64,000 nt of DNA from an uncultured Prevotellaceae bacterium (GCA_937900485.1 CALCEL010000027.1:2466-66465), one strand, 5' to 3'; counted from the stretch's first letter, positions 48,912 through 54,785 are shown. Program-made: numbers and translations. Notes: generated from the sequence alone by a model not told the origin.

Positions 48912-50471
48912 ATGTTAACGAAAATCTTCTCAGCCACGTTACGTGGTTTGGACGCTTTGCCTGTTATTATTGAGGCTGACTCATATTCCACATCATCTCC
49001 TCAAGTGAGGTTTTCTATTGTGGGGTTGCCCGACAATGCTGTAAAGGAGAGTCAGGAACGTATCCTGTCCTCTTTGCGTTTTTATGGCTATAAACATCCA
49101 GTGAAAAATGTCGTTGTCAATTTAGCCCCAGCAGATATCCGGAAAGAAGGCTCAGGCTTCGATTTGCCTATAGCCATATCTCTCCTGTCCGCTTATGACA
49201 TATTGAATTTTCATGATTTGGACCACTGCATGTTTATTGGCGAGTTAGGTCTTGACGGTAGCATTTTACCAGTCAAGGGCGCCCTACCTATATCCATCAA
49301 GGCCCGTGAGTTAGGCTTTGACAGTCTTTTTGTTCCGAAAGACAATGTCAAGGAGGCTGCTGTCGTCAACAAGCTGAAAGTGTATGGTGTCTCAAACCTT
49401 CAGGAGGTTATCTATCATCTTATGGGGCAAGTGGTGTTGGAACCGGAATTCGTTGACACACGCAAAGAGTTTTACGAGAGTCAATGTGATTATGACATCG
49501 ATTTTGAGGACGTTAAAGGTCAGGAAAATGTGAAACGTGCCTTTGAGGTAGCTGCAGCCGGTGGACATAACATTATATTAGTGGGTAGTCCGGGCTGTGG
49601 TAAGTCTATGATGGCTAAGCGCATTCCCACCATCCTTCCTCCATTATCTCTTAGTGAGAGTCTTGAGACCACACAAATACATAGCGTGGCGGGAAGGATG
49701 AAAAAAGACTCGTCGCTGATATCTCAGCGTCCTTTCAGGTCACCTCATCACACGATATCTGTCGTGGCTCTTGTGGGAGGTGGACAGAATCCCCAACCAG
49801 GAGAAGTGAGTCTGGCACATAACGGAGTGTTATTTCTTGATGAGATGCCGGAGCTGAGCCGTAGTGTCCTTGAGGTGTTACGTCAGCCTCTTGAAGATAG
49901 GAAGATAACAATCAGCCGTGTGAAATACAATGTTGAGTATCCCTGTTCCTTTATGTTGGTAGCATCTATGAACCCGTGCCCTTGTGGATATTACGGTGAC
50001 ACTTCTCATCATTGCGTGTGTACTCCTGGACAGATACAGAGATATATGAACAAGATTAGCGGTCCTTTGCTTGACCGTTTCGATATACATTGTGAGATTC
50101 AGGCAGTGCCGTTTGCTCAGCTCTCGCAGATGCAACCGGGAGAGCCAAGTAGAAAGATACGGGAAAGAGTCATCAAGGCGAGACAAATACAGGAGTTGCG
50201 GTTCCGGGAGTTCAAAGGCGTCCATTGTAATGCCCAGATGAACGAACGTATGTTACACAAGTTCGCTGAACCTGATGTCGAGTCACTCTCTATGCTTCGT
50301 ACTGCTATGGATAGACTGAAGCTGTCTGCAAGAGCCTACAGCCGTATATTGAAGGTAGCCAGAACCATCGCTGACTTAGACAGTTCAGAGAACGTCCAGT
50401 CACAGCACATTGCCGAGGCTATTGGTTATCGTAACCTTGATAGAGGTGACTGGGCAGAAAGAGGAATATAA
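48912..50471 (+). CDS. comM: Mg-chelatase-like AAA+ ATPase YifB/ComM
   Basis: 519 aa. Lon-like N-terminal domain, Walker A GSPGCGKSM, Walker B LFLDEMPE, and the Cys cluster CPCGYYGD..H.C.C. Confidence 0.9.
   Translation: MLTKIFSATLRGLDALPVIIEADSYSTSSPQVRFSIVGLPDNAVKESQERILSSLRFYGYKHPVKNVVVNLAPADIRKEGSGFDLPIAISLLSAYDILNFHDLDHCMFIGELGLDGSILPVKGALPISIKARELGFDSLFVPKDNVKEAAVVNKLKVYGVSNLQEVIYHLMGQVVLEPEFVDTRKEFYESQCDYDIDFEDVKGQENVKRAFEVAAAGGHNIILVGSPGCGKSMMAKRIPTILPPLSLSESLETTQIHSVAGRMKKDSSLISQRPFRSPHHTISVVALVGGGQNPQPGEVSLAHNGVLFLDEMPELSRSVLEVLRQPLEDRKITISRVKYNVEYPCSFMLVASMNPCPCGYYGDTSHHCVCTPGQIQRYMNKISGPLLDRFDIHCEIQAVPFAQLSQMQPGEPSRKIRERVIKARQIQELRFREFKGVHCNAQMNERMLHKFAEPDVESLSMLRTAMDRLKLSARAYSRILKVARTIADLDSSENVQSQHIAEAIGYRNLDRGDWAERGI
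50080..50335 (+). repeat. Left copy of the 256-bp perfect direct repeat (inside intact comM)
   Basis: Identical, position by position, to 52933-53188 (offset 2853). Similarity continues in diverged form to the stop codons (50471 and 53324). Confidence 0.95.
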
Positions 50472-50513
50472 ATTTGGTCGTTTAATATAAAATTGTCACT
50501 TTTGCTGCCTATA

Positions 50514-51557
50514 ATGAAAACAAGAAGATTTATCATTTTAAGTATACTTAGTATAACTGTATCATTGCAAACATTAATTGCACAAAGCAACAGTAATAGC
50601 GAATACTATGACAAAGCGTACTCTGAAATAACGGATATGCTGGAAGGCAGAACTGCCTTGTCAATAAGTCGCGCTGTCTTTGTGGCAGAATGGGCTTACC
50701 TTGACGGCAATCTGGACTACGAGAAAGATTTCTGTGAGCCTATCAAGAAAGGAGCGGACTATATGATGCGTATGATTGCTGTCAATCATTGGGAGAAATA
50801 CAAGACAGCGAAACAAATAGCCCTCTGCAACTTTTTCTTTTACCCTTGCTCTGGGAATGGCCAGAAACCTTATGAATACGATTTCAGCAATGAATTCCCC
50901 AATGATGACTGGCACTACCAACTTGTTTCCATAACTATCAAAACACACAAAGGGCAATGCCACTCATTGCCTTGGGCATTCAAGCTGTATGCAGAGGAAC
51001 TTGGTGCAAATGTCTCGCTGACACATGCTCCATGCCATTGTTTCATTATATATAAAGATGAAGACAACTTATTCCCTGAAGACTGGATTAATGTAGAGGT
51101 AACAGCACACCAGTACCAACCGACTTGGGGAATAAAGGAACACTTTGCCATTTCGGATTCGGCAATAGCAGCAGGAACATATCTGACTCCTATTACTGAT
51201 GTCCAAACAGTGGCTTGTCAGTTGGCAGACTTAGCTTTAGGCTATTACCATAAGTATAAGCGTTATGATGATTTTACACTCAAATGCGCCGAAGTATCTT
51301 TGAAATACTATCCCATGAATCCTAATGCAATCATTACCAAGGGGAAATCTCTTGATGCACTTCTACAGCAACATCTTGAACAAAACGGACATCTTCGGGA
51401 TGCATATACAGATGCTATAGACTTACAATCGAGACAATGCATGCAGGACTTAAAAGCAACCCACTGGACTCAAGAGACGGAAGAACTGCGGAACAAATGG
51501 AAGCAAACTCCAGAAGACTTTGAGAATATCAGAAAGAATATACAAATCATAAAATAA
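50514..51557 (+). CDS. Secreted transglutaminase-like (Cys-His-acid) fold protein with TPR-like C-terminal region
   Basis: Signal peptide MKTRRFIILSILSITVSLQTLIAQ. Contains KGQCHSLPWAF ... PCHCFIIY ... WINVEVT in the order expected for a transglutaminase-like core, and a helical-repeat C-terminus. AT-rich relative to its neighbours. Confidence 0.45.
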   Translation: MKTRRFIILSILSITVSLQTLIAQSNSNSEYYDKAYSEITDMLEGRTALSISRAVFVAEWAYLDGNLDYEKDFCEPIKKGADYMMRMIAVNHWEKYKTAKQIALCNFFFYPCSGNGQKPYEYDFSNEFPNDDWHYQLVSITIKTHKGQCHSLPWAFKLYAEELGANVSLTHAPCHCFIIYKDEDNLFPEDWINVEVTAHQYQPTWGIKEHFAISDSAIAAGTYLTPITDVQTVACQLADLALGYYHKYKRYDDFTLKCAEVSLKYYPMNPNAIITKGKSLDALLQQHLEQNGHLRDAYTDAIDLQSRQCMQDLKATHWTQETEELRNKWKQTPEDFENIRKNIQIIK

Positions 51558-51563
51558 AGTATT

Positions 51564-52286
51564 ATGAAAAGATTTAAAAAAGCATTACTGTCAGTCGCTA
51601 TTTCATTAGCAGCAATTAACGCAAACGCATTTCCTTGGATTTCACCGTATGCATATTGTTTAGGGAACCCCGTGGCTGCAATTGATCCAGATGGTAGAAA
51701 AGTAGTATTTGTTAACGGATACCTTGGTTTTGGCTCACCAGAAGGTGGAGAGACCTATTGGAATGGGCATAACTCTTCATTTGTGAAAGGAGCACAATCT
51801 ACATTTAATGATTATGCAACACCATATTTTACTAACTACGATTATAATTATATGAAAAGTGCAAGTATGGTTAGAGAGTCTTTAGGTTATCAATATGCAA
51901 AAGATAATTACAATGCTCTTATCGAGGGTATGAAGCCTGGTGTAGATAAATTTAATTTCGTATCGCATAGTATGGGAGGAGCTTTCTCAGAGGGAATGAT
52001 GAAATATATGTCTGAACAAGGCTGGGAAACCGATAATGCTTTATTCCTAAACGCATGGGAACCATCACGAATTAACACTAAAGTAGAAAAGAATAGGATA
52101 GATGCGACATGTGTCAATGACCCTGTACAATTTCTAAGTAAACCTTTGTTTGGAGATCCAGACATTCCATCTTCTGATGAAAGAATAAGGATAAATAGTA
52201 ATGAGTCAATGATGTATATCCATAGAGATTTAATAGATGGTAATAACGATTTATGGAAACTGATTAATAGTTTCTTATCAAAATGA
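51564..52286 (+). CDS. Orphan Rhs/polymorphic-toxin C-terminal cassette with a lipase-like alpha/beta-hydrolase toxin domain
   Basis: SPYAYCLGNPVAAIDPDGRK (51642-51701) resembles the Rhs-core terminal PxxxxDPxG(R/L) junction. Downstream are VVFVNGYLGFG....YWNG and the nucleophile elbow VSHSMGG (GxSxG), as in secreted lipases. A signal-peptide-like segment MKRFKKALLSVAISLAAINANA precedes it. No YD/Rhs repeats lie upstream. Confidence 0.6.
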   Translation: MKRFKKALLSVAISLAAINANAFPWISPYAYCLGNPVAAIDPDGRKVVFVNGYLGFGSPEGGETYWNGHNSSFVKGAQSTFNDYATPYFTNYDYNYMKSASMVRESLGYQYAKDNYNALIEGMKPGVDKFNFVSHSMGGAFSEGMMKYMSEQGWETDNALFLNAWEPSRINTKVEKNRIDATCVNDPVQFLSKPLFGDPDIPSSDERIRINSNESMMYIHRDLIDGNNDLWKLINSFLSK

Positions 52287-52669
52287 GAATCTTCATCAAC
52301 ATTATTGCAATAATTGCATTTATTATACAATCATTTTCTTTTGTATTAAATGTACTAATTCAAAAGAAACCTGAAAGCACAATAGATTCATTGTATAGCT
52401 ATTTTGTTGTTATAGCTTATCTTTGCTCGGTATTGGTTATTGTTCTGTTTGTCTTATTATATAACTTTGATTTCAAGTTTCTGAAAACAAAAATTCTAAA
52501 TTGTTTCTTCTGTATAGTTGGTTTTCTCGGAACATATATTCATATTTGGCAGTTGTTTATACATAATGACTTCGTATTAACATCATTTGTTTTACTAATT
52601 TTTGATATCTATATCTTTTGTAAAATACTGAGTAGTTTTTTTAATATTAATGACTTGCATATCCAGTGA
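52283..52669 (+). CDS. Small 4-TM membrane protein, candidate cognate immunity protein
   Basis: 128 aa with four hydrophobic helices, very AT-rich. The ATG overlaps the toxin stop (ATGA at 52283-52286), implying translational coupling. Confidence 0.5.
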   Translation: MRIFINIIAIIAFIIQSFSFVLNVLIQKKPESTIDSLYSYFVVIAYLCSVLVIVLFVLLYNFDFKFLKTKILNCFFCIVGFLGTYIHIWQLFIHNDFVLTSFVLLIFDIYIFCKILSSFFNINDLHIQ

Positions 52670-52932
52670 GTCATAGTAGTTCTAACTGCAGTTCTTCCAC
52701 GATGAGTATACAAATAATTATTAATTTTTTGGAATTTACTCTATCTTTTATATACGTTATGCTTATATGGCCAGTATATGAAGGCGAAGATTGTTTATGG
52801 GATTGCTTAATTTTTCAGCTATTAAAACGAATTGCGAAGTAACATAAACGAAATTATGGAGAAAGTAAGCTAGAATGATTCATGCAAATAGTATCTGTCA
52901 GGAATTCTCGGCGTATAAAACCGCAGCACGTA

Positions 52933-53188
52933 TCGATATACATTGTGAGATTCAGGCAGTGCCGTTTGCTCAGCTCTCGCAGATGCAACCGGGAGAGCCA
53001 AGTAGAAAGATACGGGAAAGAGTCATCAAGGCGAGACAAATACAGGAGTTGCGGTTCCGGGAGTTCAAAGGCGTCCATTGTAATGCCCAGATGAACGAAC
53101 GTATGTTACACAAGTTCGCTGAACCTGATGTCGAGTCACTCTCTATGCTTCGTACTGCTATGGATAGACTGAAGCTGTCTGCAAGAGC
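52933..53188 (+). repeat. Right copy of the 256-bp perfect direct repeat
   Basis: Identical to 50080-50335. Confidence 0.95.
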
Positions 53189-53324
53189 TTACAGCAGAAT
53201 ACTTAAAGTGTCGAGGACCATTGCAGACTTGGACGGCTCAGAAAAAATCCTGTCCCGACATATTGCTGAAGCAATTGGGTATAGGAGCCTTGACCGTGGC
53301 GATTGGGCAGAGAGAGGTGTGTAA
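52933..53324 (+). pseudogene. comM: Displaced 3' fragment of comM (last ~130 codons, alternative tail)
   Basis: It encodes IDIHCEIQAVPFAQL...AEAIGYRSLDRGDWAERGV*, with no N-terminal AAA+ part. The ORF-track start at 52875 is a fortuitous upstream extension. Confidence 0.9.
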
Positions 53325-53498
53325 TAAATAAAGGCAAATAACTCTTAATATGAGAAATAATACAGAATCGTTTGCCTTTGTGGAAGAACTGTCTGAAGCT
53401 AATGAAGAAGAGAACGTAATGCAAATCATAGTGAACAGTAAGAAACTATTGGCGATTCAGTTCTAAACGAATGACTCTTGATTTAAGCCGCAGAAACA

Positions 53499-53861
53499 CT
53501 ATCTATGTATTATAGATTCTTTGAATTTATCTTCATATTCTTTTAAAAGTTCGCTAAGTGGAATTCCTAATCGAGTGTTTAAACGTAAGAATTTTCTATT
53601 TGTTACAGAGCGTGCATTCTTAAATAGTCTTGCAGTATCAGACTGATTAAAGCCGAGTGCCGTAAGATATATTAGTATTAAATCTTTGTTGTCTATGTCT
53701 TTGTAGTGTGAAAGAATATTTTTTCTGAGATTTGGATATAGTTTATCTACAGCAATAAACACATCTTCCCACATATCTTGTGTTAAGATGGCTTTTTGAT
53801 TATATTCAATTGTTTTTAGTTCTGTGATTACAGATGATACATCCTTTGCGCTTTCAGCTAC
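53499..53861 (-). pseudogene. 5'-truncated gene for an HTH-type regulator-like protein, cut off at the repeat boundary
   Basis: The frame is open from the repeat edge (VAESAKDVSSVITELKTIEYNQKAILTQD-MWEDV...). The upstream in-frame stop (53862-53864) lies inside the first nucleotides of repeat copy 4. The C-terminus LIYLTALGFNQSDTARLFKNARSVTNRKFLRLNTRLGI looks like a helix-turn-helix. An internal ATG at 53774 gives the 91-aa ORF. Confidence 0.5.
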
Positions 53862-54189
53862 TTACCAAACTTCCTATTCATACCCTCAATTTTTAGTGTC
53901 CAAAACTCCTCTTTTTTAGTTGACACGTGTCAGTGAAAAAATGACTTCTGAAATTTTCCAGTGGCTTATTCGGCGTCTGAAATTCTTAGGTTAGGACGCT
54001 GAAAAGTCAAGGTTAGGATTTTTTAAATTGCAGACCTGTTTGTAGTATATATCCTAACCTGAGAATTTCAAAAAGAAGACCTGAGATTTTTAAAAGCATT
54101 GTAATAAGATTATCAATAAGTTAACCCGTTTTTGATTAAAAAGCAGGTATGGGAAATTTGGTTAAGCGCCAAATTGTCCTTTATTCCAC
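53861..54189 (+). repeat. Copy 4 of the ~330-bp structured repeat family
   Basis: Colinear with copies 1-3. B1 gaaattcttaggttagga pairs with B3 tcctaacctgagaatttc (18 positions, one U-G). The palindrome tgacacgtgtca lies at 53921-53932. Confidence 0.9.
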
Positions 54190-54260
54190 TTTTTTTGAGT
54201 GTTTTTTCCGTCAAATAATCACTTGTCAGTCATATTTCACGTTATTGTCTCTCATTGAGA

Positions 54261-54308
54261 CAAAAAAGAGATCCATTTCATGTCAGCATCGATGCTGTGA
54301 AATGGATC
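54261..54308 (-). terminator. Rho-independent terminator of sufE
   Basis: On the minus strand the long hairpin gatccatttca...tgaaatggatc (inner palindrome cagcatcgatgctg) is followed by tctctttttt. Confidence 0.75.
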
Positions 54309-54359
54309 ATCTTGTCTTTATGTAATAAATCTCTCGTCTCAGTATAGACGCTATACGTC

Positions 54360-54785
54360 TTACGCCTGTTTACTCTTGAATGCCATAGCGTAGAGCTTCA
54401 TTTGTTTAAGCATGGCGAGAAGTCCGTTGGAGCGTGTCGGAGACAAATGCTCTTTGAGTCCTATATCCTCAATGAAATGTATGTCGGCGTTGAGTATCTC
54501 ATCAGGAGTATGTCCTGAGAGGACCCTTATTAACAAGGTGACCAGTCCCTTCACTATCAAGGCGTCACTTTCCGCCTGAAAGACGATGACACCCTCTGAT
54601 GTCAGGTCAGCCTGCAGCCATACTCGGCTTTGGCATCCGTCAATGAGGTTACTCTCGTTCTTGTACTTCTCAGGGAGTGGTTTCTGTTCGCATCCCAAGT
54701 CGATAAGCAACTGGTATTTATCCATCCAGTCGTCGTAATCGGCGAATTCCTCGATTACTTCTTGTTGTATCTCCTCTATAGTCAT
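54360..54785 (-). CDS. sufE: SufE-family cysteine desulfuration (sulfur acceptor) protein
   Basis: 141 aa. Contains the conserved SufE active-site region (GCQS.VW) and the C-terminal SRSNGL-like motif (PTRSNGLLAML). Confidence 0.85.
   Translation of the reverse strand: MTIEEIQQEVIEEFADYDDWMDKYQLLIDLGCEQKPLPEKYKNESNLIDGCQSRVWLQADLTSEGVIVFQAESDALIVKGLVTLLIRVLSGHTPDEILNADIHFIEDIGLKEHLSPTRSNGLLAMLKQMKLYAMAFKSKQA

Follow-up and report, generated by a model that had tools for sequence, protein, structure and literature searches.

Duplicated comM 3' ends in Prevotellaceae and a predicted orphan Rhs-type toxin module inserted behind an intact comM gene

The duplicated comM end and its cargo

The stretch of DNA analysed here, referred to as the window, comprises 64,000 nucleotides (nt) from an uncultured Prevotellaceae bacterium, and all positions are window coordinates unless a comparison locus (L number) is named. 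It encodes comM, a gene for a YifB-family Mg-chelatase-like AAA+ ATPase, the 3' end of which occurs twice in direct orientation on either side of an AT-rich insert. The first copy is part of a full-length gene (48912-50471, plus strand; 519 amino acids) that matches TIGR00368 with 606 bits and carries the Pfam domains ChlI, Mg_chelatase and Mg_chelatase_C, and it constitutes the last 392 nt of comM. The second copy is a 5'-truncated, apparently displaced comM 3' end (52929-53324, plus strand) with codons 389-519, covering only the C-terminal 131 residues (TIGR00368 positions 380-499) and matching Mg_chelatase_C as its only Pfam domain. Self-comparison at an offset of 2853 nt finds 50080-50335 and 52933-53188 identical at 256 of 256 positions, which confirms the direct duplication claimed in the preliminary description of this locus. 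Homology begins at 50076 and 52929, three bases before the perfect block, and the sequences further upstream are unrelated. The sole mismatch before the block is at 50079, where the attached copy reads TTC (Phe) versus ATC (Ile) in the fragment. This Phe of the functional comM lies in the motif DR[I]DIH, at a position occupied by Ile in the displaced fragment and in all other native comM genes compared; Phe was otherwise seen there in one copy only, a fragment in L004.

The proximal block (50076-50335, plus strand) is followed by tail A (50336-50471, plus strand), the comM 3' end now in use and probably cassette-borne, and the distal block by tail B (53189-53324). Identity falls sharply after the perfect block, the two tails agreeing at 97 of 136 positions (71%). 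Their codon differences comprise 23 synonymous and 8 non-synonymous changes and both tails reach a stop codon, in line with the earlier view that they diverge mostly at synonymous sites and each complete a C-terminus. The G+C content is 0.353 over 50472-52928, compared with 0.462 for comM and 0.448 for the whole window, so that the insert, at 35% against 46% for comM, is AT-rich as had been described. Low G+C runs on beyond the second copy to 54359 (0.33), a feature absent from the preliminary description. No terminal inverted repeats are present at the islet borders (50472/52928), and no tRNA or known RNA that could have served as a target was found in the window.

An exact 256-nt repeat is a typical site for an assembler mis-join, and a chimeric or mis-joined contig might in principle have created the second comM copy. 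Judged from assemblies, not reads, this explanation deserves hardly any credence. An independent bioreactor metagenome assembly (L001) contains a 2851-nt contig that is 100% identical to the islet and reproduces both repeat junctions, and its ends lie exactly 127 nt, which is the k-mer size, inside the repeat on both sides. Since this is the expected de Bruijn output for such a repeat, an artefact of one assembly is very unlikely. In addition, the genome must contain tail B at some place, its diverged sequence being distinct, and the same architecture is widespread in many unrelated assemblies, as described below. The suspicion that the second copy is an assembly artefact, which the preliminary description had itself raised, was rejected on these grounds.

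The insert contains three open reading frames (ORFs) on the plus strand, for which family scans confirm the reported lack of any relation to comM. Judged by homology and context, this cargo is a predicted orphan Rhs-type toxin module. Its central gene, ORF2 (51564-52286; 240 amino acids), appears to encode an orphan Rhs-type polymorphic-toxin tip, as indicated by homologue names, invariant residues and fold. In this protein, a signal-like N-terminus is followed by a putative Rhs core-end remnant (PYAYCLGNPVAAIDPDGR) and a predicted minimal alpha/beta-hydrolase domain of lipase/cutinase-like type. It matches TIGR03696 weakly (E = 0.0036, 17.8 bits, below the 32.5-bit cutoff), and residues S27, Y29, N35 and D41-G44 of the core-end motif are near-invariant in homologues. 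Among the 127 homologues, some are named 'RHS repeat-associated protein' or carry PF25023, and some share only the first ~48 amino acids, their C-terminal parts being different. Residues H135, S136, G138, D186 and H220 are invariant in 35 sequences, and the AlphaFold model, with a predicted local distance difference test (pLDDT) score of 85, is matched by Foldseek with a probability of 1.00 to Bacillus lipase A, the rumen lipase Lip_vut1 and cutinases. ORF2 is accordingly modelled as a predicted alpha/beta-hydrolase fold with a nucleophile elbow and a Ser-Asp-His triad.

The start of ORF3 (52283-52669; 128 amino acids) overlaps the ORF2 stop. Its G+C content is only 0.25, and Pfam and NCBIfam profile scans gave no family match. 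The product is a predicted membrane protein with about four hydrophobic helices, and its position and membrane character suggest that it is probably the immunity protein. Upstream, ORF1 (50514-51557; 347 amino acids, with a signal-peptide-like N-terminus) belongs to a conserved uncharacterised family without any Pfam, NCBIfam or PADLOC match. None of its 246 homologues is functionally named, the source names being only 'hypothetical' or 'uncharacterized protein', and the homologue alignment reveals invariant residues Cys149 and His175. The AlphaFold model of ORF1 (pLDDT 79.5) has no significant neighbour in the PDB. Family members (P0241-P0360 among the homologues) are ~345-amino-acid secreted or lipoprotein-like Bacteroidales proteins with a C-terminus predicted to be helical and TPR-like. 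In the loci examined, the family sits directly upstream of an Rhs-type toxin tip, and a chaperone, an adaptor and a second toxin are candidate roles for it.

The order of the three genes is conserved in homologous modules (L082-L088). At 81.5% nucleotide identity, the unit occurs away from comM in orphan arrays behind a DUF6443-RHS gene (L082-L087), and at ~70% over the shared stretch it occurs directly after comM in a second species (L088), where the match is colinear with the comM end. The cargo is thus modular, as the same cassette is found both after comM and in Rhs orphan arrays. A weak 22-nt inverted repeat (50619-50640 and 52657-52678; 73% complementary, core GGATATGC/GCATATCC) lies within ~15 nt of both ends of the block shared at 81.5% (50632-52641) and may well be due to chance.

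Recurrence of the architecture and the junction element

The wider occurrence of this architecture was assessed in 80 Prevotellaceae loci, obtained by scanning one genome per species with the ComM protein; the species of the window is absent from this set, the best match being 74% identical. One to three extra comM 3' fragments are located downstream of comM in 12 of the 80 species, and 68 species are without a fragment. In L004, L025, L035, L037, L057, L059, L062 and L069, one or more of the fragments begin at ComM residue 389-390, as in the window, and the fragments that start elsewhere are shorter remnants. A metagenome scan, using as query an 18-nt motif from the ~90-nt junction element described below, returned 82 loci, and comM 3' sequence is also present on the contig in 49 of them, mostly right after the motif. 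Arrays of two to four comM 3' copies separating different cargo are seen in L069, L025, L139 and L161, the largest being L139 with up to four copies in 7.4 kb. Since the architecture recurs with different cargo in 12 of 80 species and on 49 metagenome contigs, it is neither an artefact nor a single fixed ancient rearrangement. The scenario in which all relatives would carry the same duplication with identical content, which the preliminary description had considered, is at odds with both the fragment-free species and the varied cargo. The comM 3' end is therefore apparently a recurrent, undescribed cassette hot spot in Prevotellaceae, i.e., in rumen and gut Prevotella-type relatives. Literature searches turned up no account of islands associated with comM in Prevotella or Bacteroides; their coverage was incomplete, making this absence only indicative.

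The cargo found elsewhere includes Bro-N proteins (5 of the 12 genome loci), RhuM proteins, WG-repeat proteins and a papain-like protease. Candidates for defence functions were also encountered, namely a DEDDh exonuclease with a DUF2971 protein (PADLOC candidates PDC-S48 and PDC-S31), an AAA ATPase with a PD-(D/E)XK nuclease (IetA-like, PDC-S26), and a putative type I restriction-modification system called from gene sizes and order. Moreover, 7 of the 80 genome contigs break off no more than ~230 nt past comM, which is above chance expectation and fits strain-variable DNA at this place. Insertion events seem to be rare, as L035 and L155 remain colinear (87%) and Bro-N cassettes from different species share 78-89% identity. 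Recent horizontal transfer of the shared Bro-N/RhuM cassettes was looked for and not seen, their identity of 77-89% between species being similar to that of comM itself. Internal deletions are common in the fragments of related arrays, and short remnants of ~26 codons have scattered left ends, indicating that displaced fragments decay by internal deletion.

A conserved non-coding element of ~90 nt precedes many of the fragments and is joined to unrelated cargo. Its invariant blocks are GCTGCAAT and ACGGGGTTAYATAATC. In the window, the corresponding position is taken by a non-coding junction region between cargo and displaced fragment (52670-52928, plus strand), the last ~30 nt of which align with the junctions of other arrays. 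Alignment of the window with L161 and with the junctions designated type 1 and type 2 identified a boundary-proximal block of ~25 nt common to all junction variants, including the window (52899-52928, ...CTCGGCGTATAAAACCGCAGCA). The boundary itself falls at codons ~386-390 in dozens of fragments. At the DNA level, the fragment start (IDIHCEIQAVPF) and the gene end (YRNLDRGDWAERG) are highly conserved across species, and both would provide ready homology arms. No conserved hairpin or dyad was detected in the junction element of the type-1 family, and an attC-like hairpin was dismissed for want of covariation (0 compensatory pairs, -3.4 kcal/mol).

Many downstream fragments are intact ORFs with an ATG overlapping the preceding cargo stop and a hydrophobic leader, and the window copy is an open 149-codon ORF. 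It might be speculated that such a fragment is a functional small gene for a membrane-anchored ComM C-terminal domain, with the repeat kept by selection. This is very improbable, as the leader does not display a codon-position conservation pattern (0.66/0.82/0.83 bits, versus 0.40/0.22/0.81 in the comM part), a result that also led to the rejection of the junction element as a coding leader peptide. Furthermore, many fragments have internal deletions or are cut to ~26 codons, and the leader in the window is unrelated in sequence to the hydrophobic type-1 leader.

Several further features of these loci were observed. The spacer after the comM stop of Bro-N cassettes is near-identical across species (TATATTTGCAAGTTAGAGG...) in L004 (11549-11585), L051 and L025 (one base off), and diverged in L069, the fourth of the four compared. 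It begins TATATTTG, agreeing with TAnnTTTG, the Bacteroidetes -7 promoter consensus. The comM tail may, by this sequence likeness, carry part of the cassette promoter, which would explain the retention of ~26-codon tail remnants. In L175 (10001-12274), a 757-amino-acid comM product results from an in-frame internal tandem duplication of the AAA+ region, with the equivalent of window 49452-50098 present twice, and the first AAA+ copy stops ~20 nt beyond the same codon-389 boundary. Finally, the gene order around comM is unusually fluid (L002-L081). Two window genes upstream of comM, encoding a 565-amino-acid protein and a DUF4369/thioredoxin-like protein, are downstream and inverted in about a dozen species, as if comM sat at an inversion breakpoint.

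Origin of the two tails and possible routes of entry

Since no close relative shows an empty site, the resident and incoming parts were distinguished by comparing their divergence with expectation, using pairs of other species whose ComM N-terminal identity is like that of the window (62-72%). Tail B falls at the 49th percentile of expected identity, the 256-nt block at the 58th and tail A at the 83rd; the block is thus as far from other species as a resident sequence should be. Of 80 native Prevotellaceae comM tails, 78 are more similar to tail A than to tail B (mean nucleotide identity 74.2% versus 68.4%), and the sequences most like tail A at the nucleotide level are the attached tails of two island-bearing loci, L059 (86%) and L025 (84%). 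Tail B retains every highly conserved residue, and its divergence therefore arose under purifying selection and not by pseudogene drift. This moderate evidence, drawn from sequence comparison, suggests a resident origin for the N-terminal part, the block and tail B, and arrival of tail A together with the cargo.

The 2.85-kb segment between the intact comM and its truncated original end would then consist of tail A, the three-gene toxin/immunity cassette and the junction element. Each cassette would be bracketed by comM 3' homology, and each arrival would shift the previous comM end downstream, where it decays. In the favoured reading, the ~390-nt comM 3' segment borne by a cassette lets it enter this recurrent hot spot by homologous recombination of Campbell or 'ends-in' type, without a dedicated recombinase. 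Gap repair or gene conversion would then give both copies the resident sequence for their first 256 nt, up to 50335, leaving the final 136 nt heterologous, with tail A incoming and tail B resident. Such a conversion step is needed because a single crossover of a uniformly diverged copy cannot give 256 nt of identity. The perfect block is consequently not the insertion footprint itself, as had been assumed, and would reflect later or concomitant conversion or gap repair. The more general proposal that incoming DNA with its own comM 3' end restored the gene and displaced the resident end is supported by recurrence, tail divergence and the intact gene. In related arrays, identity between copies is likewise patchy, with the high-identity block in the tail in L062 and L045, in the 5' part in L155 and the window, and as short blocks in L057, L069 and L035. 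As these blocks lie at different places, homologous recombination or gene conversion between copies is demonstrably active. Overall, recombinase-less homologous entry is given about an even chance of being correct.

A dedicated recombinase was searched for using tblastn with three serine recombinases and a regular expression for tyrosine-recombinase box II, across ~170-185 loci and the window. No large serine recombinase or tyrosine-recombinase box II was found in or beside any array (>60) or in the window, and the search otherwise matched only XerC/D-like genes kilobases away. Pfam, NCBIfam and PADLOC scans of the islet ORFs and of individually listed cargo proteins gave no integrase. A Pfam screen of 89 ORFs was confined to the 25 most frequent families, so that an integrase could escape that screen. 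The earlier statement that no integrase or recombinase is left thus holds for the islet and for the 64-kb window. Islands at this comM position that still carry a tyrosine or serine recombinase, which the preliminary description had suggested looking for, did not turn up in or beside the related arrays. A helper phage or integrative and conjugative element (ICE) with the junction element was not found in IMG/VR by three DNA-pattern scans and one protein scan, one of the pattern scans giving 10 chance matches without comM. An autonomous integrase-bearing element using the same site was absent from the 80 genome loci, the 82 metagenome loci and IMG/VR, although absence from a sample is not proof.

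Two prophage-like IMG/VR contigs (L089, 7879-10396; L090, 6003-8532) do end with large serine recombinase genes, encoding 510 and 630 amino acids, that abut comM 3' fragments, showing that comM is a split-gene attachment site for serine-recombinase phages of Prevotella-type hosts. Their comM fragments begin at codons ~219 and ~309. These insertions are a different phenomenon, since comM is split and no replacement end is brought. In L155 (1-12697), an intact comM with its cassette array is followed by a second, broken comM downstream. The broken gene begins with residues 1-63 (8565-8377) and resumes with residues 303-491 (587-3) after a serine recombinase remnant of 149 amino acids (8075-7626) and then ~7 kb of other genes, an arrangement resembling a prophage-split comM in decay next to a replacement copy.

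Another route would be site-specific integration, catalysed in trans or by a recombinase that has since disappeared. The cassettes would then be non-autonomous, att-flanked elements resembling cis-mobilizable elements (CIMEs), with the junction element and comM 3' replacement as attP and an attB near comM codon 389; the arrays would grow by accretion, and the 256-nt identity would be due to later gene conversion. This fits the constant fragment boundary, the conserved junction element with its invariant blocks beside unrelated cargo, the ~25-nt block shared by all junction variants and the stacking of up to four comM 3' copies. It also fits the finding that comM is a proven recombinase target in this clade, as seen in L089 and L090 and the remnant in L155, and the contigs ending just after comM, which would be expected of unassembled mobile or strain-variable DNA. 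However, more than 60 arrays are without a recombinase in or beside them, the IMG/VR scans detected the junction element on no viral contig, and the element lacks a conserved hairpin or dyad. Moreover, the serine-recombinase prophages found use other positions and carry no replacement ends, and patchy identity shows homologous recombination at work anyway. Integration in trans is regarded as plausible but less probable than recombinase-less homologous entry.

The islet could also be the decayed stump of a single larger prophage or ICE, originally equipped with an integrase and a replacement comM end, from which the integrase and most genes were later deleted. The geometry is classically e14/icd-like, internal fragment deletions are common in related arrays, and the flank downstream of tail B shows gene decay. 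This flank (53325-54359) is an AT-rich (33% G+C), largely non-coding stretch, almost without intact genes and without similarity to any fetched locus. It holds one gene remnant (53499-53774, minus strand), which is considered truncated because it matches the BT3442 family (563 positions) only towards the end, over ~77 positions (478-554), and it ends at sufE (54360-54785, minus strand; Pfam SufE, E = 2e-47), the first intact core gene downstream. Yet a decayed stump would require independent loss of the integrase in every related array, and its cargo is a compact module found again after comM in L088 and in the Rhs arrays. No phage or conjugation gene remnants and no transposition genes were found in the islet by the Pfam, NCBIfam and PADLOC scans. 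An origin by decay is hence unlikely.

Several observations weigh against recombinase-less homologous entry. The boundary varies by no more than ~2 codons among junction variants and follows a conserved element, a pattern not expected of homologous recombination alone unless every junction goes back to a single founder. The block next to the boundary has a loose similarity to native comM upstream of the boundary, which, in our own interpretation, may be the likeness of an attP arm to attB. In L088, the cassette is present without a displaced comM fragment. A same-species empty site is missing from the databases, where the closest ComM among 5.8 billion proteins is 75% identical, and exact-sequence look-ups of the window ComM returned no gene on record. 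Lastly, the arrays appear to be fairly old and in part vertically inherited, with no recent transfer caught. Common descent of the junctions from one founder could equally account for the facts cited for a site-specific event, namely the fixed boundary, the junction element with its invariant blocks and the shared ~25-nt block.

A broader proposal is that the comM 3' end is a dedicated, integron-like platform capturing recombinase-less toxin, immunity and defence cassettes, with comM always rebuilt and the old ends stacking downstream. Every such cassette would terminate in the ~90-nt junction element joined to a segment of comM 3' homology, and no integrase would be needed in cis. Capture might proceed via the homology itself, possibly aided by ComM-dependent transformation, ComM being the protein that drives branch migration, or alternatively via an unlinked recombinase recognising the junction element. 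As a whole, this proposal is rather doubtful.

Significance and comparison with known systems

If the pattern holds, the comM 3' end would predict the location of strain-variable toxin, immunity and anti-phage genes in Prevotellaceae, which are dominant rumen and gut bacteria and genetically poorly tractable. For engineering, it would also offer a natural site where an insertion leaves the gene intact and where homology arms are known. For annotation, displaced fragments would account for contigs that break directly behind comM and for short ORFs labelled 'YifB/Mg-chelatase C-terminal'. A question raised by these loci is how recombinase-less cassettes repeatedly reach one codon of a gene whose product acts in transformation recombination.

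The closest geometric parallel is e14/phage 21 in Escherichia coli icd, where the element supplies an alternative 3' end, the gene stays intact and the old end is left as a pseudogene fragment (PMC13626634). The icd and icdC ends differ mostly synonymously, and recombination between them yields chimeric genes (PMC13626634). The window shares the replacement 3' end, the displaced end at the far side and the mostly synonymous differences; it has the direct repeat of the 3' end and a gene kept intact by an alternative end, and it lacks an element-borne integrase. Whereas e14, a 15-kb prophage, encodes a site-specific recombination system and excises on SOS induction, the window insert has 2.5 kb of cargo and no recombinase. 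A further difference is the duplicated segment of ~390 nt with its 256-nt perfect block, and the same site in relatives of the window holds tandem arrays.

Tandem stacking of non-autonomous units at a gene 3' end is also known from the CIMEs at the 3' end of fda in Streptococcus thermophilus (ICESt1/ICESt3) and from the tandem ssrA genomic islands in Dehalococcoides. These are att-flanked elements without recombination or transfer genes that form tandem arrays separated by target 3'-end repeats, with cargo often consisting of defence or niche genes. Those systems, however, have a cognate integrase-bearing element at the same att, none of which was found for the comM arrays, and their repeats are short att cores of tens of nt, whereas the comM arrays repeat a gene segment of ~390 nt. 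An integron was rejected as a model, there being no tyrosine recombinase near the arrays and no conserved attC-like structure in the junction element.

The AbaR/Tn6022-family islands are Tn7-like transposons that interrupt comM of Acinetobacter baumannii and carry transposition genes of the tnsABC/tniQ type, with terminal inverted repeats and a target duplication of 5 bp. The comparison with AbaR drawn in the preliminary description stands insofar as the same target gene serves as an island hot spot, but it is only a loose one, as AbaR interrupts comM and here the gene is preserved. In addition, the window has no transposition genes and no terminal inverted repeats, and its duplication is 392 nt, compared with 5 bp. 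Splitting of genes by large serine recombinases, as in SPbeta/spsM, skin/sigK and A118/comK, has its counterpart at comM in L089 and L090. In contrast to those insertions at codons ~219 and ~309, the window has its insertion at codon 389, an intact comM and no recombinase.

Finally, the cargo resembles orphan toxin/immunity modules of Rhs and contact-dependent inhibition (CDI) systems, ORF2 being a predicted Rhs-type C-terminal toxin tip that seems to retain part of the Rhs core end and is followed by a small putative immunity gene. The logic of those systems, where a new tip pushes the old tip downstream by homology to the main gene, parallels that at comM. Unlike in Rhs/CDI loci, comM takes the part of the repeated 'main gene', there is no full-length rhs gene next to the cargo, and the predicted toxin begins with a start codon of its own and is signal-like at the N-terminus. 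The window is thus a variation on the theme of gene-end replacement and accretion, unusual in combining a conserved junction element with the lack of a recombinase in cis.

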